From a virus (taxonomy: Duplodnaviria > Caudoviricetes), in IMG/VR virus record IMGVR_UViG_3300032155_000021, positions 1 through 32,211 of that record: 32,211 nt of DNA, one strand, 5' to 3'. The notes beneath the pieces are model-generated. The model saw only the letters and a program-made list of their open reading frames with translations, had not been told where the DNA came from and did no database searches. Both the position numbers and the translations under genes were made by a program. Below are positions 1,295 through 31,621 of this stretch, in pieces (position 1 is the stretch's first letter; the number at the start of each line of letters is the position of its first letter).

Positions 1295-1360
1295 GGCGAA
1301 ACCGCCCTGCGGGGCGGTCGTCCCGGCCAATCGGCAACCGGGGCCTGATGAGCCAGCCGA
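1295..1360 (+). ncRNA. Predicted type II hammerhead ribozyme 1 (cleavage after C1319)
   Basis: GGC-GAAA-CCGCCC(TGCG)GGGCGG-TC-GTCCCGG(11 nt)CCGGGGC-CTGATGA-GCC: full catalytic core with stems III, I and II. Loop-I TCGGC (1331-1335) is complementary to GCCGA (1356-1360), a potential pseudoknot. Confidence 0.85.
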
Positions 1361-1373
1361 AAGGAGAAAACCG

Positions 1374-2402
1374 ATGGAAGAGAAGATTATGGATGCAATT
1401 GGCGTGGTGTTTACCGGGTCGGACAGCGACGGCGGCCTGTGGGCGCGTATCGACGCTGACGGGAATGTGGTTCCCGATCCCGGCCAGGCGTTTTTCGACA
1501 CCCGTTCCGTCTGGGGCGGCATCAAGGATGTCGTGATCGACGGGCAGCACATGGTGCTTATTCCCGCGTTCTACATCAAGCGGACCCGGCTGACGGCCGG
1601 AGAGTATGCTGGCAAGCATGCCTGGCTGATCAGTGACAAGCCTCTGGACGGGTTTTCCATCCATCCGGCCTTCCGTCGTGATGGTGGCGACTTGCAGCAG
1701 GTGTTCGTCGGCAAGTACCAGGCCAGCATGGACGGCTCCAAGCTCTCTTCCGTTCCCGGAGTCAAGCCCGCTGTCAGCCGGAGCCTGACGCAGTTCCAGG
1801 CCGATGCCGCCGCGCGCAACGAGGGCGATGTTGAAGGCTTCATGCTCTGGAGCGCTTACCAGTGGTCCGCGATCCAGTGGCTCTACCTGGTGGAGAACGC
1901 CACCATGGACAGCCAGAGCAAGACCGGTCGCGGCCGCGTGGACGCCTGGGGCAAGGGTGCGGCGGAGGTTGACGCCGAGGATGTGGCGCAGGCCACCTAT
2001 CGCGGAATCGTCGGCCTCTGGGGCAACGTCTGGCAGTGGATGGATGGACTGAAAACGATCTCCGGCGTGATCAACCTCTGGGACCGCGAAGGCAACCAGA
2101 CCTGGGTGAATACCGGGCAAACCCCGCCGAACATGAATAACTACACGTATCCTGTGACGTTCATGGACGCCAGCGGAAGTGGCTACGACATGGACGACGT
2201 GTTTATCGGCAAGACCGGTCCCACCAGCAACTCCGGCGCGACGGCCCCGGACTATCAGTACTGGAACAATTCCGCCGAGTCCTTCCCGTTCGTGGGCGGC
2301 GGCTGGAGCTACGGCGCGGATGCGGGGCTGTGGAACGTCTACTGCAGCAACGCGGCGTCGGACTCGTACACGAGCCTCGGTGCGCGCCTGGCGAAGGAGT
2401 AA
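1374..2402 (+). CDS. Remote DGR target protein A (342 aa; C-type-lectin/FGE-like fold predicted; homolog of the tail adhesin C-terminal part)
   Basis: AAGGAG at 1361-1366. Motifs FVGKYQAS, GIVGLWGNVWQW, VGGGW...LGARLAK; C-terminal VR matches the TR. Confidence 0.9.
   Translation: MEEKIMDAIGVVFTGSDSDGGLWARIDADGNVVPDPGQAFFDTRSVWGGIKDVVIDGQHMVLIPAFYIKRTRLTAGEYAGKHAWLISDKPLDGFSIHPAFRRDGGDLQQVFVGKYQASMDGSKLSSVPGVKPAVSRSLTQFQADAAARNEGDVEGFMLWSAYQWSAIQWLYLVENATMDSQSKTGRGRVDAWGKGAAEVDAEDVAQATYRGIVGLWGNVWQWMDGLKTISGVINLWDREGNQTWVNTGQTPPNMNNYTYPVTFMDASGSGYDMDDVFIGKTGPTSNSGATAPDYQYWNNSAESFPFVGGGWSYGADAGLWNVYCSNAASDSYTSLGARLAKE
2276..2395 (+). repeat. DGR variable repeat VR-A
   Basis: 120-bp ungapped match to TR 30332-30451 with 12 mismatches, all at TR adenines. 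Confidence 0.95.
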
Positions 2403-2429
2403 TGTGTCTTGCCCCTTGGGTCATGCTGT

Positions 2430-2447
2430 GGCGGGCGAAAGCCCGCC
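2430..2447 (+). promoter_or_regulatory. DGR target-recognition hairpin after VR-A
   Basis: GGCGGGC-GAAA-GCCCGCC, starting 35 nt after the VR end. Confidence 0.8.
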
Positions 2448-2455
2448 TGTTGAAA

Positions 2456-2520
2456 GCGAAACCGCCCTGCGGGGCGGTCGTCCCGGCCAATCGGCAACCG
2501 GGGCCTGATGAGCCAGCCGA
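2456..2520 (+). ncRNA. Predicted type II hammerhead ribozyme 2 (cleavage after C2479)
   Basis: Same sequence as ribozyme 1 from GCGAAA onward; stem II is 2 bp plus the potential pseudoknot. Confidence 0.82.
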
Positions 2521-2533
2521 AAGGAGAAAACCG

Positions 2534-3562
2534 ATGGAAGAGAAGATTATGGATGCAATTGGCGTGGTGTTTACCGGGTCGGACAGCGACGGCGGCCTGT
2601 GGGCGCGTATCGACGCTGACGGGAATGTGGTTCCCGATCCCGGCCAGGCGTTTTTCGACACCCGTTCCGTCTGGGGCGGCATCAAGGATGTCGTGATCGA
2701 CGGGCAGCACATGGTGCTTATTCCCGCGTTCTACATCAAGCGGACCCGGCTGACGGCCGGAGAGTATGCTGGCAAGCATGCCTGGCTGATCAGTGACAAG
2801 CCTCTGGACGGGTTTTCCATCCATCCGGCCTTCCGTCGTGATGGTGGCGACTTGCAGCAGGTGTTCGTCGGCAAGTACCAGGCCAGCATGGACGGCTCCA
2901 AGCTCTCTTCCGTTCCCGGAGTCAAGCCCGCTGTCAGCCGGAGCCTGACGCAGTTCCAGGCCGATGCCGCCGCGCGCAACGAGGGCGATGTTGAAGGCTT
3001 CATGCTCTGGAGCGCTTACCAGTGGTCCGCGATCCAGTGGCTCTACCTGGTGGAGAACGCCACCATGGACAGCCAGAGCAAGACCGGTCGCGGCCGCGTG
3101 GACGCCTGGGGCAAGGGTGCGGCGGAGGTTGACGCCGAGGATGTGGCGCAGGCCACCTATCGAGGGATCGTCGGCCTCTGGGGCAACGTCTGGCAGTGGA
3201 TCGACGGGCTCAAGACCGATGATGGCGAAATCTGCCTCTGGGACCGCAACGGCCGCAAGACATGGGTCGAGGCCGGCCAGATTTCCGACTCCATTGACGA
3301 CGCTGTTTATCCGGTGACCTTCATGGACGAGAGGACGAACGAATATGACCTCGGCGACCTCTTTATCGTGGACTTCGGCGCTGATGAGCAGAGCGAGTCC
3401 ACGGCTCCCGATTGGCAGTATTGGGACAGCTATCGCGGGTACTTCCCGATCGTGGGCGGCGGCTGGGGCGCCGGCGCGCATGCGGGGCTGTGGTACGTCT
3501 ACTGCAACTACGCGGCGTCGACCTCGTACACGTCCCTCGGTGCGCGCCTGGCGAAGGAGTAA
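2534..3562 (+). CDS. Remote DGR target protein B (342 aa; paralog of A)
   Basis: AAGGAG at 2521-2526. N-terminal ~220 aa identical to A, then a divergent acidic segment, then a C-terminal VR matching the TR. Confidence 0.9.
   Translation: MEEKIMDAIGVVFTGSDSDGGLWARIDADGNVVPDPGQAFFDTRSVWGGIKDVVIDGQHMVLIPAFYIKRTRLTAGEYAGKHAWLISDKPLDGFSIHPAFRRDGGDLQQVFVGKYQASMDGSKLSSVPGVKPAVSRSLTQFQADAAARNEGDVEGFMLWSAYQWSAIQWLYLVENATMDSQSKTGRGRVDAWGKGAAEVDAEDVAQATYRGIVGLWGNVWQWIDGLKTDDGEICLWDRNGRKTWVEAGQISDSIDDAVYPVTFMDERTNEYDLGDLFIVDFGADEQSESTAPDWQYWDSYRGYFPIVGGGWGAGAHAGLWYVYCNYAASTSYTSLGARLAKE
3436..3555 (+). repeat. DGR variable repeat VR-B
   Basis: 120-bp ungapped match to the TR with 15 mismatches, all at TR adenines. 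Confidence 0.95.
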
Positions 3563-3589
3563 TGTGTTTTGACCCTCGGGTCATGATGT

Positions 3590-3607
3590 GGCGGGCGAAA
3601 GCCCGCC
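3590..3607 (+). promoter_or_regulatory. DGR target-recognition hairpin after VR-B
   Basis: GGCGGGC-GAAA-GCCCGCC, starting 35 nt after the VR end. Confidence 0.8.
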
Positions 3608-3615
3608 TGTTGAAA

Positions 3616-3680
3616 GCGAAACCGCCCCGCGCGGGCGGTCGTTCCGGGGAGACGGCGACCGGGGCCTGATGAGCCAGCCG
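3616..3680 (+). ncRNA. Predicted type II hammerhead ribozyme 3 (cleavage after C3640)
   Basis: GC-GAAA-CCGCCC(CGCGC)GGGCGG-TC-GTTCCGG(GGAGACGGCGA)CCGGGGC-CTGATGA-GC. Differences from copies 1/2 are confined to loops plus one C-G to U-G change; loop CGGC can still pair with downstream GCCG. Confidence 0.82.
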
Positions 3681-3718
3681 AATGAAAACGAAATGCCGCA
3701 AGGCGGCTTGGGAGAAAC

Positions 3719-3952
3719 ATGCAGATAACGCACCCGCAGACTTTGGTGGCCGCGATGCTCCCGTGGCAGGTGAGGACGTGGGTATGTCTGGTCGCGCTCC
3801 TGTTCGGGGCTGTGAAGAGTTCCGGGATGCCCTTGGCTCTCGCCCTTTGTGTGGACTGCATAGCTCTGCTGGTCATGATCCAGGCTGACGACAAGGTGAC
3901 CCTCGCCGTGTTCGCGTTGACGATGATCGGCGCTTGCTCCTTGAGGCCGTAG
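3719..3952 (+). CDS. Small hydrophobic (membrane) hypothetical protein
   Basis: GGAGA RBS; 77 aa with 2-3 hydrophobic stretches. Confidence 0.55.
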   Translation: MQITHPQTLVAAMLPWQVRTWVCLVALLFGAVKSSGMPLALALCVDCIALLVMIQADDKVTLAVFALTMIGACSLRP

Positions 3953-3971: not shown

Positions 3972-4145
3972 ATGACCCAGGACGAGAAGAAGCACGAACT
4001 GCGCAAGGCTCTTGCCGACTTTTTTACGAACCCGGCGGTACTTGCGATGTGGCGCGGCCACATCAAGCGCAAAGGTCTGAGCCCGGAAGACGCCGAAGAG
4101 GTTGTCGGATGGCTGAAACTCTGGGCGAATGGAGGTGGTAAATGA
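3972..4145 (+). CDS. Small hypothetical protein (57 aa; not in the ORF track)
   Basis: GGAGG RBS; MTQDEKKHELRKALADFFTNPAVLAMWRGHIKRKGLSPEDAEEVVGWLKLWANGGGK; TGA overlaps the next ATG (ATGA). Confidence 0.7.
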   Translation: MTQDEKKHELRKALADFFTNPAVLAMWRGHIKRKGLSPEDAEEVVGWLKLWANGGGK

Positions 4146-4582
4146 AAAAGAAGCCGATAACGCCGCGCAGGCGAACCCTGCTCCATATAGCACACAAGGC
4201 TGCGGACCAGCTTGGATGGGACGACGACATGCGCCGTTCCATTCAGGAAACGCATACCGGGCATAGTTCATGCCGGGATATGAGCGACGCACAGCTGGCC
4301 AGATGGTGTTGGAAGCTCAAGGACATGGGCGCGGACATCTACGTTCCTGATCCGGCTCCGCGCGGCGGGCAAGACCTGACGAAGCCGACCACTCGGCAGC
4401 TCGCCCAGATTGAACAGCTCGCTTTTGAGCGCGGATGGGAGGACGGGCTGAATGATGGACGTCTGCGTGGGTTCATCAAGCGCACGGCTGGCGTCGACGA
4501 TGTCACCTTTGCCAGCAGGAAGCAGGCAACCGACATCATCTCCGGCCTACGGCGCTGGAAAAAGCAAGAGGAGTCCAAGTGA
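4142..4582 (+). CDS. gemA: Mu GemA/gp16-like regulatory protein (DUF1018-like)
   Basis: LHIAHKAADQLGWDDDMRRSIQETHTGHSSCRDMSDAQL pattern; located just before the Mor-like gene as in Mu-like phages. Confidence 0.75.
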   Translation: MKKKPITPRRRTLLHIAHKAADQLGWDDDMRRSIQETHTGHSSCRDMSDAQLARWCWKLKDMGADIYVPDPAPRGGQDLTKPTTRQLAQIEQLAFERGWEDGLNDGRLRGFIKRTAGVDDVTFASRKQATDIISGLRRWKKQEESK

Positions 4583-5067
4583 TCGAACAGAAGCTGAACA
4601 CGGAACACGCGCAGAAGCTGGAAGAGCTACTTCCCGCGAGCGTGAGGGAGCTGGCCGAGCATATCGGCCTGGACTTCGCCTTGCGCGTCGTGGAGAAGCT
4701 CGGCGGAACCACGCTGGACGTGCCGAAGGGAGACATTCCCGCTGGCATCGCCCGCATAGAGTGGCTCGGCGAGGTTCTTGGCGAGGATGTCGCCGCAGTT
4801 TTCGTGCGCCACTATGGCGGCAGTCGCGGGTTCTATATCCCGCGCTGCCAGGCGGCCGTCGCGGCCATGCAGGACTTGTCGATCCAGAAGCGCTTCGACG
4901 GCCTTTCTGAGCAAGGGCTGTCGGCCCGTACGATCGTGGCCATGCTGGCTGTAGAGTTCAGCCTGACCGACAAGACCATCTGGCGCGCCCTGACGAGGGT
5001 TCCCGGCGGCGAAAAGAAGGACGGCGGCAGGGCGCAGCAGATTGGCCAGCTGCCCTTGCCTCTGTGA
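4579..5067 (+). CDS. Mor/C-family transcription activator
   Basis: GTG start. LPASVRELAEHIG...LGGTTLDVPKG...YGGSRGFYIPRC and C-terminal HTH (LAVEFSLTDKTIWRAL). Confidence 0.8.
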   Translation: MIEQKLNTEHAQKLEELLPASVRELAEHIGLDFALRVVEKLGGTTLDVPKGDIPAGIARIEWLGEVLGEDVAAVFVRHYGGSRGFYIPRCQAAVAAMQDLSIQKRFDGLSEQGLSARTIVAMLAVEFSLTDKTIWRALTRVPGGEKKDGGRAQQIGQLPLPL

Positions 5068-7053: not shown

Positions 7054-7587
7054 ATGGCAAGGAAATCCACAGTCCAGCAGCTTTCACCGGAGATACGGTC
7101 CTATCTGGAGCGGCGGATCGTCGAGGGCAGATTGACGCTCGACGAGCTGATCGCAGACCTGCAGGGCAAGTTTCCCGACGAGGCCGCTCCCTCCCGCTCC
7201 GCCGTGCATCGTTACGGAAAGAAGCTGGAGCGAAAGCTCTCGGCCATCAAGGCGAGTACGGAAGCCGCGAAGCTCATTGCGGAGAGCGCGCCGGATCAGG
7301 CGGACCTCAGGTCCGCAGCTGTTATCAGCCTGGTCCAGTCAGAGCTGTTCGATGCGATGGTGTCGCTGCAGGAGGCCGAGGAAGAGTCCGACGCCGGAGC
7401 GCGTGTCAAGCTGCTCTCTCAGGCCGCCAAGGCTATCGCGGAGGTTTCCAGAGCGTCCGTGGTTCAAAAGCGCTGGCAGGACGAGGTGGCCGAGAAGCTG
7501 GCCAAGATCGAAGAGGCCATGCAGGACGATGCCCGTTACGACGCATACACATTCAATCGCATTAAGGAAGAGCTGTATGGCAGCTAA
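7054..7587 (+). CDS. Mu gp27-like (DUF3486) putative small terminase
   Basis: MARKSTVQQLSPEIRSYL...PSRSAVHRYG motif; upstream of the large terminase. Confidence 0.8.
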   Translation: MARKSTVQQLSPEIRSYLERRIVEGRLTLDELIADLQGKFPDEAAPSRSAVHRYGKKLERKLSAIKASTEAAKLIAESAPDQADLRSAAVISLVQSELFDAMVSLQEAEEESDAGARVKLLSQAAKAIAEVSRASVVQKRWQDEVAEKLAKIEEAMQDDARYDAYTFNRIKEELYGS

Positions 7588-8354
7588 TGTAAAGCCCATT
7601 ATGAAATATCCCGGCGGAAAAGGTGGCTGGCAAAAGACATTGCCGCCATGCTTCCGCCGCATCGTTGTTATGTGGAGGTCTTTGGTGGCATGGGGGCCGT
7701 GCTCCTGGCGAAAGAGCCCTCTCCTGTCGAGGTGTACAACGACGTCGACGAGGGGCTGGTGACGGTCTTCCGCGTCGCACGGCATCATCCCGACGAGCTT
7801 TCCAAGGAGCTTCGGTACTGCCTCTTTTCCCGTTCCGAGCGCCTGCACTGGCTGGAGTCTCCGGGCGAGACGGACATTCAGCGCGCCGCGCGGTGGATCG
7901 CTGCACGGTGGACCGGCTTTGCCGGGCTGGCCGGTCGTGGCTTCCATGTGTCCAGGTCGTGCGCTGCCGCATCGCGGGACACGCTGATCAAGAACATCAT
8001 GGCCGTATCCGATCGCCTGGCTCGGGTGTCGATAGAATGCCTCGACTGGCGGCGGCTGATCGACCTTTATGACCACGCCCCTTCGGGGGGGGGGGGGGGG
8101 GGGTAGTCTTTTTCCTGGACCCTCCCTACGCGGACGGCGACCAGAAGCTGTACGCGAGCGGCGGCATAGACCATGCCGAGCTTCGGGAGCGCCTGCGTAC
8201 TGTTAAGGGTAGCTGGATTTTGACCTACGGGGACCATCCGCTGATCAGGGAGCTGTATGCGGATTGCGAGATCGTGGAGCGAGAGCGCTGGAGGGGTATA
8301 AACAATGCAGCCCGCAAGCGCTACGTTGAACTTTTAATCAGGCCGAAAGAATGA
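7577..8354 (+). pseudogene. Dam-like (D12-class) DNA adenine methyltransferase split over three frames
   Basis: KYPGGK in frame 1; WLAKDIAAMLPPHRCYVEVFGG...VYNDVD in frame 2 after the A4 run at 7618-7621; VVFFLDPPY...ELLIRPKE* in frame 3 after G19 at 8085-8103. Final stop overlaps the terminase ATG. Confidence 0.85.
8085..8103 (+). repeat. Poly-G tract (19 G)
   Basis: Directly visible, just upstream of the DPPY codons. Confidence 0.95.
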
Positions 8355-9661: not shown

Positions 9662-11205
9662 TAGATAAGAAGACACTGAAGTCCGAGGTGGCCTCGGCCG
9701 GGTTGACCGGCATACGGCAGGCGTGGACCTTGCGGCCCATGGCCTCGCTCACCCCGGCGCACGTGGTTGACATTTTGCGCAGGGCGAGCCTTGGCGACGC
9801 CAAGGAGTATCTGCTGGCCGCCGCAGACATTGAAGAGAAAGACCTGCACTACCGTTCGGTGTTGCAGACCCGCAAGCTGGCCGCCGCAGGGTTGCCGCTG
9901 TCCGTTTCTCCAGCCGACGAGACGCCCGCCGCCGAGAAGGCTGCGGAGCTTGTCCAAGACGCGCTGGAGAGGCTGGACATCCCCGCCCTGCTGGTGGGAC
10001 TGCTTGACGCGCTGTCCAAGGGGTATGCCGTTGCGGAGATTCTCTGGTCCACCCAGGGCGGCCGGTGGTTGCCCCAGGACGCGCTGATCCGCGAGCCGCA
10101 CTGGTTCCAGTTCGACCGGGAGACCGGCCGCCATCTGCGTCTGTACGACGGGTCGCCGGATGGCCAGGAGCTGCCGGAGTACAAGTTTATCTGCCATGCT
10201 CCGAGGATTCTGGCGGGCATTCCGATCATGGGCGGCCTCGCCCGTTCGGCGCTGTGGGCGTGGGTGTTCAAGAGTTATGCCCTGCGCGATTGGGCGGCAT
10301 TCGCCGAGCTGTACGGCCAGCCGCTGCGCCTGGGCAAATACGACGCCTCGGCCACCCAGCAGGATATTGACGTGCTTCGCCGGGCGGTGATGGATGTCGG
10401 CTCCGATGCCGCCGCCGTTATTCCCGACAGCCTCAAGATCGAATTTCAGGAGTCGACGGCCAAGACGGCCAGCGCGGACCTGTACCAGCGCCTGATCGAA
10501 TATCTGGACCGCCAGGTGAGCAAGGCCGTTTTGGGACAGACGCTGACGACAGACCAGGGTTCCAGCGGCAGCCTTGCCCAGGCCACGGTCCACAACGAGG
10601 TTCGCAGTGACCTCTTGCGCGCCGACGCACGTTCTTTGTCTGCGACGCTCCGCCGGGGTCTTATCGGCCCCATCGTGCGCTTGAACCTTGGAGATGCGCC
10701 CCTTCCTCACGTGGAACTGTTCGTTGAAGAGCCCGAGGACATGGTGGCGCTTGCGGACCAGCTGTCCAAGATTGTCCCCCTCGGTGCCAAGGTGCCGGAG
10801 CGCTGGGTGCGTGAGAAGTGGGGCATCCCCGAAGCGGAAGGCGACGAGCCTCTTTTGGGTGCTGTATCCGCGCCGGAAAATCTCAAACAAACAGAGCAAG
10901 ACAAAGACAAGCACTCCCGCAAGGCTACCGCCGCACACGCCCAGGAGGCTTCCGGAGAGGATGTGACCCCCATATCCCCCCAGGCCGAAAGGATGGCTGC
11001 GGATGCCGAGCCAGGGTGGGCGACCATTCTGGAGCACATCGGCAAGCTGGTCGAGGACGCTCCGGACCTTCCGACGCTTCGGGAGTCGCTGCTCGCAAGC
11101 TACGCCGATCTGCCCGATGGAGATCTGGCCGAAGTGATGGCCATGGGATTCGCCGCCGCCGAGCTGGCGGGGCGCTACGACGTGGAGAGGGAGTCTGATG
11201 TCTGA
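9655..11205 (+). CDS. Portal protein (Mu gp29/DUF935-like)
   Basis: LLDALSKGYAVAEILW, FAELYGQPLRLGKY, SKAVLGQTLTT, HNEVR motifs. Confidence 0.9.
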   Translation: MVVDKKTLKSEVASAGLTGIRQAWTLRPMASLTPAHVVDILRRASLGDAKEYLLAAADIEEKDLHYRSVLQTRKLAAAGLPLSVSPADETPAAEKAAELVQDALERLDIPALLVGLLDALSKGYAVAEILWSTQGGRWLPQDALIREPHWFQFDRETGRHLRLYDGSPDGQELPEYKFICHAPRILAGIPIMGGLARSALWAWVFKSYALRDWAAFAELYGQPLRLGKYDASATQQDIDVLRRAVMDVGSDAAAVIPDSLKIEFQESTAKTASADLYQRLIEYLDRQVSKAVLGQTLTTDQGSSGSLAQATVHNEVRSDLLRADARSLSATLRRGLIGPIVRLNLGDAPLPHVELFVEEPEDMVALADQLSKIVPLGAKVPERWVREKWGIPEAEGDEPLLGAVSAPENLKQTEQDKDKHSRKATAAHAQEASGEDVTPISPQAERMAADAEPGWATILEHIGKLVEDAPDLPTLRESLLASYADLPDGDLAEVMAMGFAAAELAGRYDVERESDV

Positions 11206-12436
11206 TCCGGCCGCAGCTGACCCGAAGGTGGCGGGCGTACTCAAGCGCCCGTTTCCGGAGCAGGTCGCCTTTTTCCGGGCCAAGCTCGGCAAAATGATGC
11301 CGTCCGCCAAGTGGGACGACGTCTGGAAGGGGCGGCACGATCAGGGGTTCATGGTGGCCGGGGCCGCAAAGGCGGACCTGCTGTCCGACCTGGCCGCAGC
11401 GGTCGACAGGGTTATTGCCGAGGGCGGAAGTATTCAGTCCTTCCGCAAGGACTTTGCCCGAATCGTCGAGCGCAACGGCTGGGACTACCGGGGCGAGTTC
11501 AACTGGCGCACCAGGGTTATCTACACGACCAATCTTTCCACGAGCTACGCCGCCGGTCGCCTTGCGCAGCTGCGCGAGGGCGGCTTTGAGTGGTGGGTGT
11601 ACAAGCACTCCGACAGCTCCCTTCATCCCCGTCCGCTGCATGTGTCCTGGAACGGTCTCACGCTGCGGGCTGACGATCCTTGGTGGAAGGCGCACTACCC
11701 TCCAAACGGGTGGGGCTGCCGATGCCGGGTTGTCGGCGTCAGGCGTCCCGAGGATGCCGACAGGTACGGCGGCAAGGTGCGCACGGCTCCGGATAATGGA
11801 ATCGACCCCAAGACGGGAGAGCCGAGCGGCATCGACCGTGGATGGGGCTACATGCCCGGCGACACGGTTTCAGACGCCGTCCGGACGATGGCGGCCAAAA
11901 CGCAGCAGTGGGATTATTCCCTGGCCAAGTCGTACATGCAGGGAGTTCCGGAGTCTGTCCGCGACAGGCTGGCCACGGCATATCGCAGCCTGCCTTCCGT
12001 GGCGGATGATGTTCGGCGTTATGCTCAGGCCGCGTTGGACGGCAGGGACGTCCCCCCGTATCGGACCATGGGCCTGCTCACAAGTGCAGACGCGAAGACG
12101 GTGGGAGGACTGACCGGCGCAAGGGTCGATCTGTTCGACTATGCGATCGACCAGTATGCACCCAGGCACATACTCACCGGGCATGGCGACGCCAAGTCAG
12201 AACTCGCCAGAGGCCAGCGGGAAGTAAGGGTCGAAGACTATGCCTTGCTGCCTGAAATGCTGAACAAGCCGGACCTGGTCGAGGACGGTGGCGTGAACAA
12301 GGTTGGCCGCAAGGTCGTGCGGATATCGAAAGAGATGGACGGCGAGACGCTCACGGCCGCTTTTGAGGTTCGGAAAAAGAGAAGGTCGCTGGCTCTGCAG
12401 AGCATGTGGATAAAAGCAGGTGCGCCCCCGCGCTAA
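11198..12436 (+). CDS. MuF (gp30/F) minor head protein with C-terminal nuclease-like extension
   Basis: PFPEQVAFFRAK, RTRVIYTTN, HYPPNGWGCRCRV; extra ~130 aa with RHILTGHG...RGQ...LPEMLNKPD...SMWIK. Confidence 0.85.
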   Translation: MSDPAAADPKVAGVLKRPFPEQVAFFRAKLGKMMPSAKWDDVWKGRHDQGFMVAGAAKADLLSDLAAAVDRVIAEGGSIQSFRKDFARIVERNGWDYRGEFNWRTRVIYTTNLSTSYAAGRLAQLREGGFEWWVYKHSDSSLHPRPLHVSWNGLTLRADDPWWKAHYPPNGWGCRCRVVGVRRPEDADRYGGKVRTAPDNGIDPKTGEPSGIDRGWGYMPGDTVSDAVRTMAAKTQQWDYSLAKSYMQGVPESVRDRLATAYRSLPSVADDVRRYAQAALDGRDVPPYRTMGLLTSADAKTVGGLTGARVDLFDYAIDQYAPRHILTGHGDAKSELARGQREVRVEDYALLPEMLNKPDLVEDGGVNKVGRKVVRISKEMDGETLTAAFEVRKKRRSLALQSMWIKAGAPPR

Positions 12437-27352: not shown

Positions 27353-29905
27353 ATGATGGCTACTGAAAATCCCACGTTGACTCCGGGGTCGCCCCCCGAG
27401 TTCAGCGAATCCCTGCCTGCTCTCACCGTGGAGAGCGTGGCGCACCCGGACACCTGGAATCCGATCCACCAGCGGCTGCTCGACAACACCGTTGTCCTGC
27501 GCGAATCGGTTGAACTGACCGACGAGAACTTGGCCGCTCTGGGCTCGCGCGTGGATGGTCTGGAAGAAACCAGCTCCGTCAGCGTGCAGCGCGCCGTCAC
27601 CCTGGACTGGCTCTACCGCGACAACCGTATCGCCTTTGAGCTGTGGGCTCCCGGCTTCACCCTGATTGACGCCGTGGATACCGCCATAGTGCAGGGTATT
27701 TCCGGCGACGACAGCGTGGACGTTGCCAGCACGGCCCAGCTTCGGCCTGGAGAGTATTACGTCCTCGCCGACGAGGAGGGCTCGCTGCTGATCAAATGCA
27801 CGGCCGTGCTCTCCGAGAACCGCATCCGCATTGAAACCAACCTTCCGCGCACTCTGGGAGCCGGTGTCCTGACCCGCTGCTCCATGGAAGAGGTCGGGGC
27901 CGCGTACGCCACGTGCGAGGTCGGTGACATCTGGCTGTCCAAGCCGATCAACATCGGAAACGACGCCGAGGGCGGTGCCGTCGTGATCCGGCGCTCCCTG
28001 AACTCCGGCGAGGCCAGGCTCTACTTCCGCGACGCATCCAATCCGGCGTGGACCGAGCGCGTCTGGTCTGTCCGCAGACAGGGCGGGGATATCCCCGCAG
28101 GCTTTGCGGATTATGAGTACATTCTGCCCATGCGTGGTGACGGCAGCCTGATGATCGTCACCGAGGGTGAAGCGATGCAGATTCGCCATATCGTGGCCCT
28201 GTCTGCGGCTACCGGCCTCGGCGGCTACGTCAACCCGGCCATGCGCCCGAACGCGCCCGCCATCAGTTCTCCGGCCGACGGCGCTGTCGACATCTTCGAG
28301 CGGCCTACGCTGGCCATCGCCGGGTATTCGAGTCCTGGCGGAACACCCCAGGCTGGCATTCAGTTCCAGGTCGCCGTTGCCGGGGCGCAGTTCGCCACCG
28401 TGCTGCACGACTCTGGAGAACAGCCTGCGGGCTTGTCGTATCAGATGCCCGCCGACGTGCTTGAAGTATCCTCCAGCTATGAGCTGCGGGCGAGGGTGAA
28501 AGACCTGTCCGGCCTGTGGTCCGACTGGTCCGCCGTTTCGGGCTTCGCCACCGCCGCCAGTTTCGCCTATGTGGCCACGCCGACGCTGGTCTCTCCCGCG
28601 AACAACGCCACGGACGTTGGCGAGACCCCCTTGCTGCAGACCGGCGCTTTCGCGGTCATCGACGGCAGTGACACCCATGCGGCCAGCCGCTGGAGAGTCC
28701 GCGCTTCGGGCGGAACCTGGGCGGAACCGTTGTGGGATTCCGGCGAGGATGCCGTGAACCTGCTTTCTCTGACGCTGCCTGCGGGCATTCTGGAAGCCGG
28801 GTTGCGGGTCTACTACCTGCAGGTGCAGCACAAGGGCGAAACGCGCGGGTGGTCCGAGTGGTCGGGCGAGGTCAAGATCACGACCAAGCAGGCGTTTGCA
28901 TACGTCTCCGGCGTTGCGCTGATTACCCCTGGCGGCGATGGCGGCACGTGGGCCTATGTGGACGAGGACGGCAACACCGTCCCCGATCCCGGCGCTGCCC
29001 ATTTCAGCACTCATCCCGTCTGGGGCGGCATGCAGGACGTGGTTGTCGACGGCCAGTACATGGTCAAGATTCCCAAGTTTTACATCCGCCGCGCGACGAT
29101 CGGCTCCGGAGCGAACACTGGGAAGGAAGCCTGGTGGATCAGCGACCAGCCCGTTGACGGATATGTCGTGCATCCGGCGTTCAAGGTCGGCGGCAGCGAA
29201 GTCGATCAGATTTACGTCGGCAAGTATCAGGCCAGCATGGATGGTTCCAAGCTCGGCTCTAAGCCCGGCGTGTTGCCCGCTGTCAGCCGGACGCTGACGC
29301 AGTTTCTGGCTGATGCCGCTGCCCGCAACGTCTCCGGCGTGTCCGGGTTCGGCCTCTGGAGCGTCTATCACTGGTCTGCGATTCAGTGGCTTTACCTGGT
29401 GGAGAACGCCACCATGGACAGCCAGTCCGAGACCGGGCAGGGGCGCGTCAGCGCGTCGAGCGCGGCCAATGTCGATGCCTCGGATGTGGCGCAGGCCACT
29501 TATCGCGGAATCGTCGGCCTCTGGGGCAACGTCTGGCAGTGGATGGACGGCCTGAAAACGATCTCCGGCGTGATCAACCTCTGGGACCGTGAAGGCAATC
29601 AGGCCTGGGTGAATACCGGCCAGACTCCGCCGAACATGAACAGCTGGACGTATCCGGTGACGTTCATGGACGCCAACGGAAGCGGATACGACATGGACGA
29701 TGTTTTCCTGTCGAAAACCGGCCCCACGAGCAACTCTGGAGCAACCGCTCCCGACGGCCAGTATTGGAACAATTCCGCCGAGTACTTCCCGATCGTGGGC
29801 GGCTACTGGAGCTACGGCGCGCATGCGGGGTTGTGGAACGTCGCCTGCGGCGACGCGGCGTCGTACTCGAACACGCACATCGGTGCGCGCCTGGCGAAGG
29901 TGTAA
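27353..29905 (+). CDS. Tail adhesin / receptor-binding protein; proximal DGR target
   Basis: 850 aa; Ig/FN3-like repeats (YELRARVKDLSGLWSDWS; YYLQVQHKG..GWSEWS), then a ~340-aa lectin-like region ending in a VR; adjacent to avd-TR-RT. Confidence 0.88.
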   Translation: MMATENPTLTPGSPPEFSESLPALTVESVAHPDTWNPIHQRLLDNTVVLRESVELTDENLAALGSRVDGLEETSSVSVQRAVTLDWLYRDNRIAFELWAPGFTLIDAVDTAIVQGISGDDSVDVASTAQLRPGEYYVLADEEGSLLIKCTAVLSENRIRIETNLPRTLGAGVLTRCSMEEVGAAYATCEVGDIWLSKPINIGNDAEGGAVVIRRSLNSGEARLYFRDASNPAWTERVWSVRRQGGDIPAGFADYEYILPMRGDGSLMIVTEGEAMQIRHIVALSAATGLGGYVNPAMRPNAPAISSPADGAVDIFERPTLAIAGYSSPGGTPQAGIQFQVAVAGAQFATVLHDSGEQPAGLSYQMPADVLEVSSSYELRARVKDLSGLWSDWSAVSGFATAASFAYVATPTLVSPANNATDVGETPLLQTGAFAVIDGSDTHAASRWRVRASGGTWAEPLWDSGEDAVNLLSLTLPAGILEAGLRVYYLQVQHKGETRGWSEWSGEVKITTKQAFAYVSGVALITPGGDGGTWAYVDEDGNTVPDPGAAHFSTHPVWGGMQDVVVDGQYMVKIPKFYIRRATIGSGANTGKEAWWISDQPVDGYVVHPAFKVGGSEVDQIYVGKYQASMDGSKLGSKPGVLPAVSRTLTQFLADAAARNVSGVSGFGLWSVYHWSAIQWLYLVENATMDSQSETGQGRVSASSAANVDASDVAQATYRGIVGLWGNVWQWMDGLKTISGVINLWDREGNQAWVNTGQTPPNMNSWTYPVTFMDANGSGYDMDDVFLSKTGPTSNSGATAPDGQYWNNSAEYFPIVGGYWSYGAHAGLWNVACGDAASYSNTHIGARLAKV
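29779..29898 (+). repeat. DGR variable repeat VR-T (tail adhesin)
   Basis: 120-bp match to the TR; 10 mismatches at TR adenines and one synonymous C>T at 29831. Confidence 0.95.
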
Positions 29906-29906
29906 T

Positions 29907-30305
29907 GTGTCTGGCAATGTGAGTCATGCAAGGGCGGGCGATAGCCCGCCCTCTTCCGGGTACGCACAGCCGAGCCCGTACGCGACCCTCCTCGCGAAAA
30001 TCGAAGAGGTGGAAGCCTACACGCACACCGTGCTGCAGCAGTATCCGAAAATCGAGCGGTACGCCCTGTGCGCCGACATACGGGCGGCGCTGGCGAACAT
30101 TCAGCGCCTCTCCATCGTCGCATGGAAGCGGTACCACAAGAAAACAACGCTGCAAGACCTCGACGTGGAGATCGAGGTTCTGAGGATGTGGATTCGCAAA
30201 TCGTTGCGCCTGCAATATATCACGCCGCGCCGCTATGAAATATGGGTGCGGCACGTAAACGAGATCGGCCGCATGGTCGGCGGATGGCTCAAGGCGGCAA
30301 GATGA
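29907..30305 (+). CDS. avd: DGR accessory variability determinant Avd
   Basis: YPKIERYALCADIR...LDVEIEVLRMWIR...EIGRMVGGWLK; basic helical protein between VR and TR. Start uncertain (GTG 29907 or 29919). Confidence 0.88.
   Translation: MSGNVSHARAGDSPPSSGYAQPSPYATLLAKIEEVEAYTHTVLQQYPKIERYALCADIRAALANIQRLSIVAWKRYHKKTTLQDLDVEIEVLRMWIRKSLRLQYITPRRYEIWVRHVNEIGRMVGGWLKAAR
29931..29952 (+). promoter_or_regulatory. DGR target-recognition hairpin after VR-T
   Basis: AGGGCGGGC-GATA-GCCCGCCCT; core GGCGGGC starts 35 nt after the VR end. Confidence 0.8.
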
Positions 30306-30331: not shown

Positions 30332-30451
30332 CGAGTACTTCCCGATCGTGGGCGGCAACTGGAGCAACGGCGCGAATGCGGGGCTGTGGAACGTCAACTG
30401 CAACAACGCGGCGTCGAACTCGAACACGAACATCGGTGCGCGCCTGGCGAA
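30332..30451 (+). ncRNA. DGR template repeat (TR)
   Basis: Between avd and RT; 10 AAY triplets in the VR reading frame; A at nearly every position where the three VRs differ; diverges from the VRs after CTGGCGAA. Confidence 0.95.
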
Positions 30452-30595
30452 CGGCAACGGCCAGAAGCCCGTCGCTTACGGGCGGCGGGACAGTGCCTGT
30501 CCTTCGGGGCGTCCGTCCTGACCTATCCGGTCAAAGATCAACAAACAGCAGCGGCAAGTAGCCGTGCGCGAAAGTGGCTGCTGGTAATCATACAA

Positions 30596-31621
30596 ATGCC
30601 AATCACACACAGCGACCTATTCGCCAGAATCATCGACTTCGACAACCTGTGGAGCGCGTATCTGGCCGCGCGAAAAGGCAAGCGGTACCGCCGCGAAGTG
30701 GCGGAGTTCAGTGTCAATCTGGAAGAGAACCTTATCAATATACATAACCATCTCGTATGGGGAAGCTGGGAGCCTGGAAAGCCCCGCAGCTTCACGGTTT
30801 TTGAACCCAAGCGCCGGGATATTCAGGCTCCGCCATTTGCGGACAGGATTGTCCACCATGCCCTGGTTCGGGTGGTAGAGCCGCTGTTCGAGCGGCGGTT
30901 CATCCATCACAGCTATGCCTGCAGGACGGGTAAGGGCGCGCAGCGAGCCGTGTGGGCGTTGCAGCGCATGCTGCGCACGGCGCATAGGAACTGGCAGGCT
31001 CCGTATGTCGTAAAGGCCGACATCAAGAGCTATTTCGCCAGCATTCGACATGATGTGCTGTTTACGGCCATTGAGCGGGTCGTCTCCTGCAGGGACACCC
31101 TTGACCTCTGGAAAAGGATCACCGCCGGGTATGGCCATGATGGCGTCGGCCTTCCGGTCGGCGCTTTGACGAGTCAGCTCGCCGCCAATGTCATGCTGGA
31201 CCAGCTGGATCACACCATGACGGATGGCGCGGGCATCGGGCGGTATGTTCGGTATATGGACGACTTCATAATCGTTGCCCCCGACAAGACTGCTGCATGG
31301 CGCGCCTTGAACGTCGCAGCGGATACGGTCGCAGGGCTCGGGCTGTCCTTGAACCCCAAAACCAAGATTGTCCCTGCCAAGGGCGGCGTCGACTTCTGCG
31401 GCTATCGCACGTGGGCGACGCACATCCTTCCCCGCAAGAGGAATATGCGCAAGGCGCGCCGGATGTTCCGGAAGATGGTCAGGCAATACGCCGCTGGCCG
31501 GATATCTCTCCAGCATGTCCAGCAGCGAGTGGCCAGTTTTCTGGCGTACACCAAGCATTGCTCGGCAGATCGCAGCGTGCGGTCTATTCTGGGCGATGCC
31601 GTATTTATCAAAGGAGAATGA
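30596..31621 (+). CDS. DGR reverse transcriptase (341 aa)
   Basis: PKRRDIQAPPFADRIVHHAL, SYACRTGKG, KADIKSYFASI, GLPVGALTSQ, YVRYMDDF, GVDFCGY; no maturase or endonuclease extension. Confidence 0.95.
   Translation: MPITHSDLFARIIDFDNLWSAYLAARKGKRYRREVAEFSVNLEENLINIHNHLVWGSWEPGKPRSFTVFEPKRRDIQAPPFADRIVHHALVRVVEPLFERRFIHHSYACRTGKGAQRAVWALQRMLRTAHRNWQAPYVVKADIKSYFASIRHDVLFTAIERVVSCRDTLDLWKRITAGYGHDGVGLPVGALTSQLAANVMLDQLDHTMTDGAGIGRYVRYMDDFIIVAPDKTAAWRALNVAADTVAGLGLSLNPKTKIVPAKGGVDFCGYRTWATHILPRKRNMRKARRMFRKMVRQYAAGRISLQHVQQRVASFLAYTKHCSADRSVRSILGDAVFIKGE

Follow-up and report, generated by a model that had tools for sequence, protein, structure and literature searches.

Type II hammerhead ribozymes (Rfam RF02276) occur in clusters in prophages, where they flank single genes of changing identity, and circular or spliced products could not be detected for them (PMC3088659, PLoS Comput Biol 2011). 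Their strongest gene association is with Mu-like phages, for a reason given as unknown (PMC10085705), and the standing hypothesis is that they process polycistronic mRNA (PMC6765202). Type II hammerheads also lie near phage-like genes in Desulfovibrio vulgaris, with cleavage detected in total RNA (PMC8782182). Separately, non-adjacent targets of diversity-generating retroelements (DGRs) are common in prophages: a second non-adjacent target was counted in 45 of 372 DGRs (PMC5758913), and Quimbyvirus has a distal, non-structural target with a suggested role in conflict (PMC8008677). Here, we describe a 32,211-nt stretch of viral DNA (positions 1 to 32,211 of IMG/VR record IMGVR_UViG_3300032155_000021, Caudoviricetes; hereafter the window) in which three type II hammerheads bracket two remote DGR target genes in the early operon of a Mu-like myovirus. 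Both halves of this arrangement are already in print. The combination, for which a literature search found no report, is most likely a coincidence of two features that are independent of each other, and not a novel kind of retroelement.

With the clustered prophage hammerheads (PMC3088659; Mu link, PMC10085705), the window shares the topology, the short stem II, a pseudoknot, the bracketing of single genes in an early region, and a changing cargo. It differs from them in that the cargo is an active DGR target, and in that its alleles show insertion (contig L156), hybrids (L019 and L158), and duplication (the window). The D. vulgaris hammerheads (loc 1-3, detected by cyPhyRNA-seq) are likened by class, not by sequence; their bacterial family is also that of the cultured strain with the closest homologue, and the available text of that study mentions no DGR link (PMC8782182). 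On the DGR side, a template repeat (TR), reverse transcriptase (RT), and Avd placed beside the fibre rewrite a distant, apparently non-structural lectin-fold gene in several phages, and likewise here (PMC5758913; Quimbyvirus, PMC8008677; Shimadzu, second variable repeat in orf43, bioRxiv 10.1101/575076). Ribozyme bracketing is not mentioned in the available text of these reports, whereas separate origins and convergent acidification of the remote targets are tested here. The target site of BPP-1 (PMC3240598) and the protein TaqVP (PDB 5VF4) have in common with the window the adenine-only differences between variable repeat (VR) and TR, the GC hairpin with a GRNA loop behind the VR, and the C-type lectin fold of formylglycine-generating-enzyme (FGE) type. 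Unlike those systems, the window has three targets, two of which lie in an early operon 26-27 kb from the TR.

In retrozymes and viroid-like circular RNAs, tandem hammerheads bound a unit-length RNA. The window shares with them the same-strand tandem hammerheads that delimit a unit, but its unit is protein-coding and fixed at one locus, its ribozymes are of type II with a stem II of 2-3 bp, and its junction lies off the cut site. In synthetic insulators of the RiboJ type, a hammerhead and a hairpin directly before the Shine-Dalgarno (SD) sequence fix the 5' end of each gene's mRNA; the window elements, by contrast, are natural, of type II, and repeated along the operon. A literature search linking hammerheads or other self-cleaving ribozymes with DGR targets found no description of the combination; its scope did not extend to subscription journals or to the supplementary files of PMC3088659, PMC8144416, and PMC8782182. 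The available text of PMC5737381, PMC10743442, and PMC8144416 holds no link between ribozymes and DGR targets, and the Wu survey supplement has no entry for 'hammerhead' or 'alkalitolerans'. The locus joins two questions: the purpose of self-cleaving ribozymes in Mu-like early operons, and the function of second, non-structural DGR targets.

The initial annotation, made from the sequence alone, had called three type II hammerheads and proposed an Rfam search. That search agrees: the copies score 51.7 to 54.3 bits against RF02276 (Hammerhead_II; gathering score 37), with E-values of 1e-8 to 5e-8 over the full model (1-66), and they are the only matches at E<=1 in the whole window. The CUGAUGA, GAAA, and GUC core elements are intact in all three; stem I and stem III are closed and stem II is open. 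The predicted cuts after 1319, 2479, and 3640 fall where they had first been placed and delimit units of 1160 and 1161 nt. Copy 3 differs from copy 1 in both loops and by one stem I pair (C-G to U-G), as noted at the outset; the list of differences was incomplete, however, in that copies 2 and 3 have A in place of the G of copy 1 at the outer position of stem II, which is 2 bp long in these two and 3 bp in copy 1. Three features had been overlooked: a pseudoknot, the identity of the two units over 1296-2002, and the chimeric nature of target 1. The pseudoknot joins loop I to the 3' tail (1331-1335 with 1356-1360 in copy 1), with 5 bp in copies 1 and 2 and 4 bp in copy 3, and a pairing of this kind has been described for type II hammerheads (PMC3088659). 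Given this identity of the units, the first two hammerhead copies represent a single duplicated element and do not count as independent evidence. Self-cleavage of the window copies would be expected from their class, members of which cleave in D. vulgaris.

Each unit between hammerheads contains, as first described, a ribosome-binding site (SD), an open reading frame (ORF), a VR, and a homing hairpin; the ORF is 342 aa long, and the hairpin is GC-rich with a GAAA loop. A complete DGR stands behind the tail fibre, with avd, TR, and RT side by side. Relative to the TR, VR1 is changed at 12 of 28 adenines and VR2 at 15 of 28, each with 0 of 92 other positions altered; VR3, at the tail fibre, departs from the TR at 10 of 28 adenines and at 1 of the 92 remaining positions. 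All three VRs are followed by a GC hairpin with a GRNA loop (2430-2447, 3590-3607, and 29932-29951), a structure needed for homing in BPP-1 (PMC3240598). The restriction of mismatches to adenines identifies both 342-aa ORFs as true remote DGR targets, as had been claimed. The features of the locus and of the DGR are as follows.

483-995: gam (PF07352).
1016-1294, + strand: HU/IHF-like gene (PF00216, E 1e-32) of the early operon, after gam; its stop codon abuts hammerhead 1.
1294-1362, + strand: hammerhead 1, type II, upstream 'A' type (54.3 bits); predicted cut after 1319; stem II of 3 bp; SD directly behind.
1374-2402, + strand: remote DGR target 1, 342 aa, a chimera by sequence comparison; single-member protein cluster.
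2276-2395, + strand: VR1, from VR/TR comparison.
2430-2447, + strand: GC-rich 7-bp hairpin with GAAA (GRNA) loop, of the DGR target-recognition type (consensus as in PMC3240598).
2454-2522, + strand: hammerhead 2, type II, B-type 5' flank and A-type body (53.2 bits); predicted cut after 2479; stem II of 2 bp.
2534-3562, + strand: remote DGR target 2, 342 aa, of the type that relatives carry; an acidic, free-standing protein with no visible leader.
3436-3555, + strand: VR2, from VR/TR comparison.
3590-3607, + strand: second target-recognition hairpin, GAAA loop.
3614-3683, + strand: hammerhead 3, type II, downstream 'B' type (51.7 bits); predicted cut after 3640; stem II of 2 bp.
4142-5067, + strand: gemA and mor (PF06252, PF08765), end of the early/middle region.
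27353-29905, + strand: tail-fibre target, 850 aa; its last ~340 aa are a paralogue of the remote targets; VR3 at 29779-29898.
29932-29951, + strand: hairpin with GATA loop behind the fibre VR.
29958-30305, + strand: avd (NCBIfam NF033474, 116 bits against a cut-off of 80); coordinates are those of the open frame scanned, with the start codon not fixed.
30332-30452, + strand: TR; the same sequence in three of four close relatives, the fourth differing by one base.
30596-31621, + strand: DGR reverse transcriptase (Pfam RVT_1, E 8e-20), with a YMDD motif in the translation.

The window covers most of a Mu-like myovirus, with gam, HU, gemA, mor, lysis, Mu portal, head, sheath, and baseplate genes (Pfam); the left end of the phage lies outside it. 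A scan for promoters and terminators gave nothing above chance (2 against 1.2 expected, and 5 against 4.5 expected).

The remote target corresponds to the C-terminal unit of the fibre, with 66% identity in its N-part and several 50-nt blocks that are 86-90% identical between the paralogues; it has no counterpart of the ~510-aa N-terminal part of the fibre. No Pfam or NCBIfam family matches the remote targets. An AlphaFold2 model of target 2 reaches a predicted local distance difference test score of 95.5 (77 sequences), and the protein folds well alone. The best Foldseek match of this model is TaqVP (5VF4; E 2e-15, TM 0.54), and a Treponema variable protein is also among the best; the model thus points to an FGE-type C-type lectin fold, as in DGR variable proteins. 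The scaffold is under purifying selection outside the VR (median dN/dS 0.14, 27 pairs of 8 alleles). The 12 remote VRs compared are all distinct, and L003 and L006 have identical scaffolds with different VRs; diversification is ongoing in the population. In L007, the VR nearly equals the TR (one adenine and two other differences), through recent low-error homing or assembly collapse with the TR. The closest named homologue of target 2 is EPR35577.1 (94% identity, at the protein level) from the cultured Alkalidesulfovibrio alkalitolerans DSM 16529. This suggests a host among the Desulfovibrionaceae, probably a sulfate reducer, and would make the locus testable in one system.

We counted 11 contigs with the remote target, taking once L157, which appears to be the same contig as L019. 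All nine relatives that span the slot hold a single target, of the target-2 type. Bracketing by hammerheads is not in doubt, but the two bracketed genes first reported are not the norm. The target sits behind HU in all 10 contigs with upstream sequence and is never dispersed, and all target-carrying contigs of this phage group descend from one event. No hammerhead was found at six fibre/DGR loci scanned in relatives. A more distant DGR phage, 91% complete, has one hammerhead and no remote target.

The slot itself shows turnover. In L156, HU is followed by hammerhead A, a non-DGR ORF of 98 aa, a second hammerhead A identical to the first, and then the target; on the reverse strand of this contig, the interval between HU and target has a 314-nt insert, the 98-aa ORF resembles by eye the N-terminal part of GemA, and the ends of the repeat are the structural ends of the ribozyme. 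L156 also has a different ORF in place of gam. The downstream hammerheads of L019 and L158 are hybrids (B flank, A middle, B tail), as would be expected after duplication and collapse at the DNA level. The downstream hammerhead of L019 (5071-5139) has a substitution at the second position of the CUGAUGA element, the only case in 21 hammerheads of relatives, and may be inactive or reflect a sequencing error. Behind hammerhead 3, a small ORF (3719-3952 of the window) differs from one relative to the next through insertions and changes of frame, and it is missing in L006, in which gemA follows the ribozyme; this is further turnover at the slot. The allele series suggests that the ribozymes double as DNA-level cassette boundaries. 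Variable genes parted by a repeated element, an integron-like trait, are seen in L156, L019, L158, the window, and loci with several hammerheads. No site-specific recombinase for the repeat was found among the 40 window ORFs scanned with Pfam, in a window that does not include the phage's left end.

Hammerheads of this kind are a fixture of Mu-like early regions. A pattern derived from the window motif matched at least 129 IMG/VR stretches; the matches listed comprise 80 loci with long flanks, which make 74 contigs once six overlapping pairs are merged, and 49 further short loci, and the counts that follow refer to these. A match to Gam, HU, GemA, or Mor lies within 4 kb in 51 of the 74 long-flank contigs, while only 2 of the 74 hold the target; 5 of the 49 short loci also touch it. 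The ORFs behind these hammerheads are unrelated to one another. The core is followed at 12-30 nt by an SD and start codon in 85 of 152 hammerheads, compared with 160 of 3000 random positions. Stem II is 2-3 bp long in 122 of 153 family members, and a pseudoknot of at least 4 bp is present in 74 of 153, against a mean of 21 with letters shuffled and of 54 with tails swapped (maximum 66). The pattern misses core variants (the second copy of L019 was missed by it and found by Rfam), and our negative results rest on Rfam. From this distribution, the ribozymes appear to be generic to the early-region site and not parts of the DGR. A hammerhead spacing of 1167 nt in L063, L078, and L086 was considered as kin of the 1160-nt unit and rejected as coincidence, the genes inside being unrelated. 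Arrays of 5-7 hammerhead-like motifs within ~3-4 kb, each ahead of a small gene, occur in L058, L094, and L101, which are phages with no Mu early-gene matches.

Remote targets, in turn, occur without ribozymes. A homologue search returned a second clade of free-standing proteins of 322-328 aa, with named members from Pseudomonas oleovorans and Azonexus hydrophilus. This clade is widespread (clusters of 86, 32, and 13 members), in the early regions of unrelated temperate phages. Among the best 80 of 141 related viral stretches, the top 14 (L218-L231) are free-standing. None of these 14 has an Rfam ribozyme at the gathering score, and none of seven (six of L218-L231 plus L197) has one at E<=1. 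In all five pairs tested, the target matches the TR of its own phage, with changes that fall on 4-19 of 21-24 adenines and on 0-2 of the 75-78 remaining positions, and with avd and RT beside the fibre. L197 is likewise a true target of its own TR, a third case that is sister to the window's clade on a long branch. Five second-clade genes with context listed stand among early genes of ssb, recombination, or gemA type (ORFs read by eye), and the gene of L225, a Mu-like phage, lies in nearly the same region as that of the window with no hammerheads around it. A tRNA gene lies ~250 nt upstream of the free-standing target in L229/L230 (4671-4743). Among GenBank phages, the second clade has no close homologue (five matches, all under 30% identity).

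Thus, a remote target needs no ribozyme. The co-occurrence of hammerhead and target in other DGR phages, which the initial annotation proposed to look for, is seen in 10 of 10 contigs of this phage group and in 0 of 14 of the second clade; its proposal of a DGR-specific, self-excising hypervariable cassette is not supported, because the same ribozyme subfamily precedes unrelated genes and the second target clade lacks it.

The two free-standing clades nest among different fibres (tree of 59 rows, chimera omitted and last 38 residues dropped), and a single origin is rejected by the approximately unbiased test (p 2e-6, on a chosen subset of 27 rows). Aspartate and glutamate make up 16.3% of the window clade (n=4) and 12.9% of the second clade (n=11), compared with 7.9% of fibre tips (n=42, maximum 11.6%). 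On these comparisons, free-standing targets arose more than once, and both clades were acidified relative to fibre tips. The remote protein is most likely an intracellular binder that is made early and acts in phage-host conflict.

We consider it likely that two known, separate phage features coincide here, and that the early transcript cleaves itself into linear single-gene mRNAs. The pairing of ribozyme and target is real and unusual, but it is probably no dedicated system, because hammerheads are a fixture of this region and the target occurs elsewhere without them. Type II hammerheads stand between the stop codon of one gene and the SD of the next in Mu-like early operons, and self-cleavage would turn the polycistronic early transcript into single-gene mRNAs. 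Processing of mRNA had been among the roles first suggested, and it has gained support from the cleavage of the D. vulgaris type II copies in total RNA (PMC8782182). Each mRNA would begin with a 5'-OH and the stem I hairpin and pseudoknot directly before the SD, and would terminate with the homing hairpin, followed by that of stem III and a cyclic phosphate. Cleavage would in this way most likely set stability and translation separately for each gene. Such an effect on stability or translation is drawn from RNA decay in general and from engineered ribozyme insulators. The near-identical direct repeats of the hammerheads may also mark where cassettes insert, duplicate, and collapse by DNA recombination, as the alleles suggest. 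DGR phages, for their part, appear on more than one occasion to have put the C-terminal lectin domain of the fibre among their early genes, as a free-standing copy with VR and homing hairpin. In this phage group, that copy occupies the hammerhead-bounded slot behind HU, and the DGR would rewrite its VR at the DNA level through the hairpin, with no need of the ribozymes. Pending experiments, the locus stands as a coincidence of two published features.

Several observations weigh against this explanation. A hammerhead lies upstream of the target in all 10 contigs with upstream sequence and downstream in all 10 with downstream sequence, and the core is intact in 20 of the 21 hammerheads of relatives (extra copy of L156 included). 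No target-less allele was found: all six loci reached through Gam hold the target, as do all four stretches, on three contigs, reached through the hammerhead tail in metagenomes. A gene-specific advantage is therefore possible. As for cleavage, minimum-energy folds in longer contexts recover stems I and III for copies 1 and 2, while copy 3 takes another fold; the z-scores lie between -0.3 and -2.1, so that cleavage efficiency in context is uncertain. No RNA evidence for cleavage came from the runs compared with the single-cassette relative L003, of which the raw-read run matched with 0 reads and the one run declared as RNA covered 6 of 30 bins. By our simple rule, a start codon is missing at 12-30 nt past the core in 67 of the 152 hammerheads. 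In other phages, hammerheads of one locus share an identity of 0.48 to 1.0, which does not always exceed that between loci; exchange driven by the repeats is thus not universal. The weakest part of the explanation is the step to an intracellular binder, which is suggested by the early-operon location and the composition; the four sequences that represent the window clade in the composition test are near-identical alleles, and in the Roseburia phage Shimadzu the second VR is under apparently weaker selection than the fibre VR (bioRxiv 10.1101/575076).

The tandem in the window calls for an account of its own. Units 1 and 2 are identical over 707 nt (1296-2002). Target 1 equals target 2 up to nt 2002, continues with an 83-aa segment that matches tail-fibre alleles at 90-96% identity and target 2 at 47%, and then returns to VR1 and a remote-type 3' end. 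Hammerhead 2 has a downstream-type 5' flank and an upstream-type body (flanks compared with nine relatives), with the crossover in a shared 12 nt (2456-2467), 5' of the stem III loop. Since the nine spanning relatives carry one target and target 1 is a unique chimera, the tandem is either a recent duplication or an assembly join: it may have formed by duplication through the hammerhead repeat with exchange with a fibre allele, or by the joining of two strains in assembly.

The layout of three ribozymes and two genes may also come from the joining, in assembly, of two strains or two prophage copies that have a single cassette apiece. This is a serious possibility, although we lean against it; it concerns the tandem only. 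The 707 identical nucleotides and the single target of all nine spanning relatives speak for it. So do the hybrid downstream hammerheads of L019 and L158, which exist in the population, would loop an assembly graph, and could mislead an assembler, and the post-stop spacer of unit 1, which is closer to other alleles (L006, L020) than to unit 2. Against it, the fibre-type segment of target 1 shares only 88-90% identity with the fibre of the same genome and so was not copied from it by the assembler, and L156 demonstrates that a genuine extra cassette between identical hammerheads can occur.

A bolder form of the intracellular role is rather unlikely, though worth stating. The early operon would supply an antibody-like repertoire, in which a cytoplasmic lectin-fold protein rewritten by the DGR is directed against host defence or regulatory proteins; the hammerheads would release a stabilised mRNA and serve as recombination sites (duplication, fibre segment swap, and collapse), giving several specificities at once.

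It is improbable that the ribozymes were selected for this gene, giving a long-lived mRNA for late synthesis of a variable domain that would join the virion as a second receptor-binding tip or be released as a decoy. The remote protein is a complete C-terminal unit of the fibre and folds well alone, and hammerhead bracketing is fixed in this phage group. However, the early-operon location, the marked acidification relative to fibre tips in two separate clades, and the missing ~510-aa N-terminal fibre part all speak against this reading, as does the second clade of targets, which has no ribozymes.

There is little to recommend the remote gene as mainly a reservoir, a spare fibre tip that swaps segments with the real fibre and whose protein is of little consequence. 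The fibre-type segment of target 1 indicates that paralogues do exchange, if the assembly is right, and the 50-nt blocks of high identity noted above would fit such exchange. Nevertheless, the chimera is one sequence against a 45-member cluster of the normal type, none of five close fibre alleles carries a remote-type middle segment, and the dN/dS of 0.14 and distinct composition argue for a protein selected in its own right.

The least probable reading, which we regard as very unlikely, is that the excised cassette RNA is circularised as in retrozymes, and then translated as a circle or copied by the DGR RT into new target cassettes. Tandem hammerheads of the same orientation do flank one unit, end-joining would rebuild a full ribozyme, the same genome encodes an RT, and a tandem duplication is present in the window. 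Yet the duplicate junction lies upstream of the cut site and not at it, which counts against the RT-assisted copying first proposed. A circle-derived copy joined at the cut site should keep the downstream stem III loop, whereas the loop of hammerhead 2 is of the upstream type, in contrast to copy 3 and to 8 of the 10 downstream copies of relatives. The test would break down if the downstream ribozyme of the donor was itself a hybrid, like those of L019 and L158. With ends held by a stem II of 2 bp, release would be favoured, and from hammerhead chemistry a rebuilt ribozyme would be expected to cut again. A target copied by an RT might be expected to disperse, but it stays behind HU. The circular mRNA suggested by the initial annotation also sits poorly with the prior work on clustered prophage hammerheads, which reports no circles (PMC3088659). 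As a weak test, given an RNA run that covered 6 of 30 bins, three contig sets on L003 contain no go-back joint at the hammerheads; the only one, from 5240 to 5103 in a single DNA contig, is at the VR.

Two further genes of the window stand apart from the locus. At 7560-8110, a D12-class adenine methyltransferase gene matches its profile only at positions 21-81 of 253 and seems to be split or truncated. At 11198-12436, a Mu F head-morphogenesis protein is fused to a PBECR3 nuclease-like domain (Pfam E 2e-12, 47 bits against 30).

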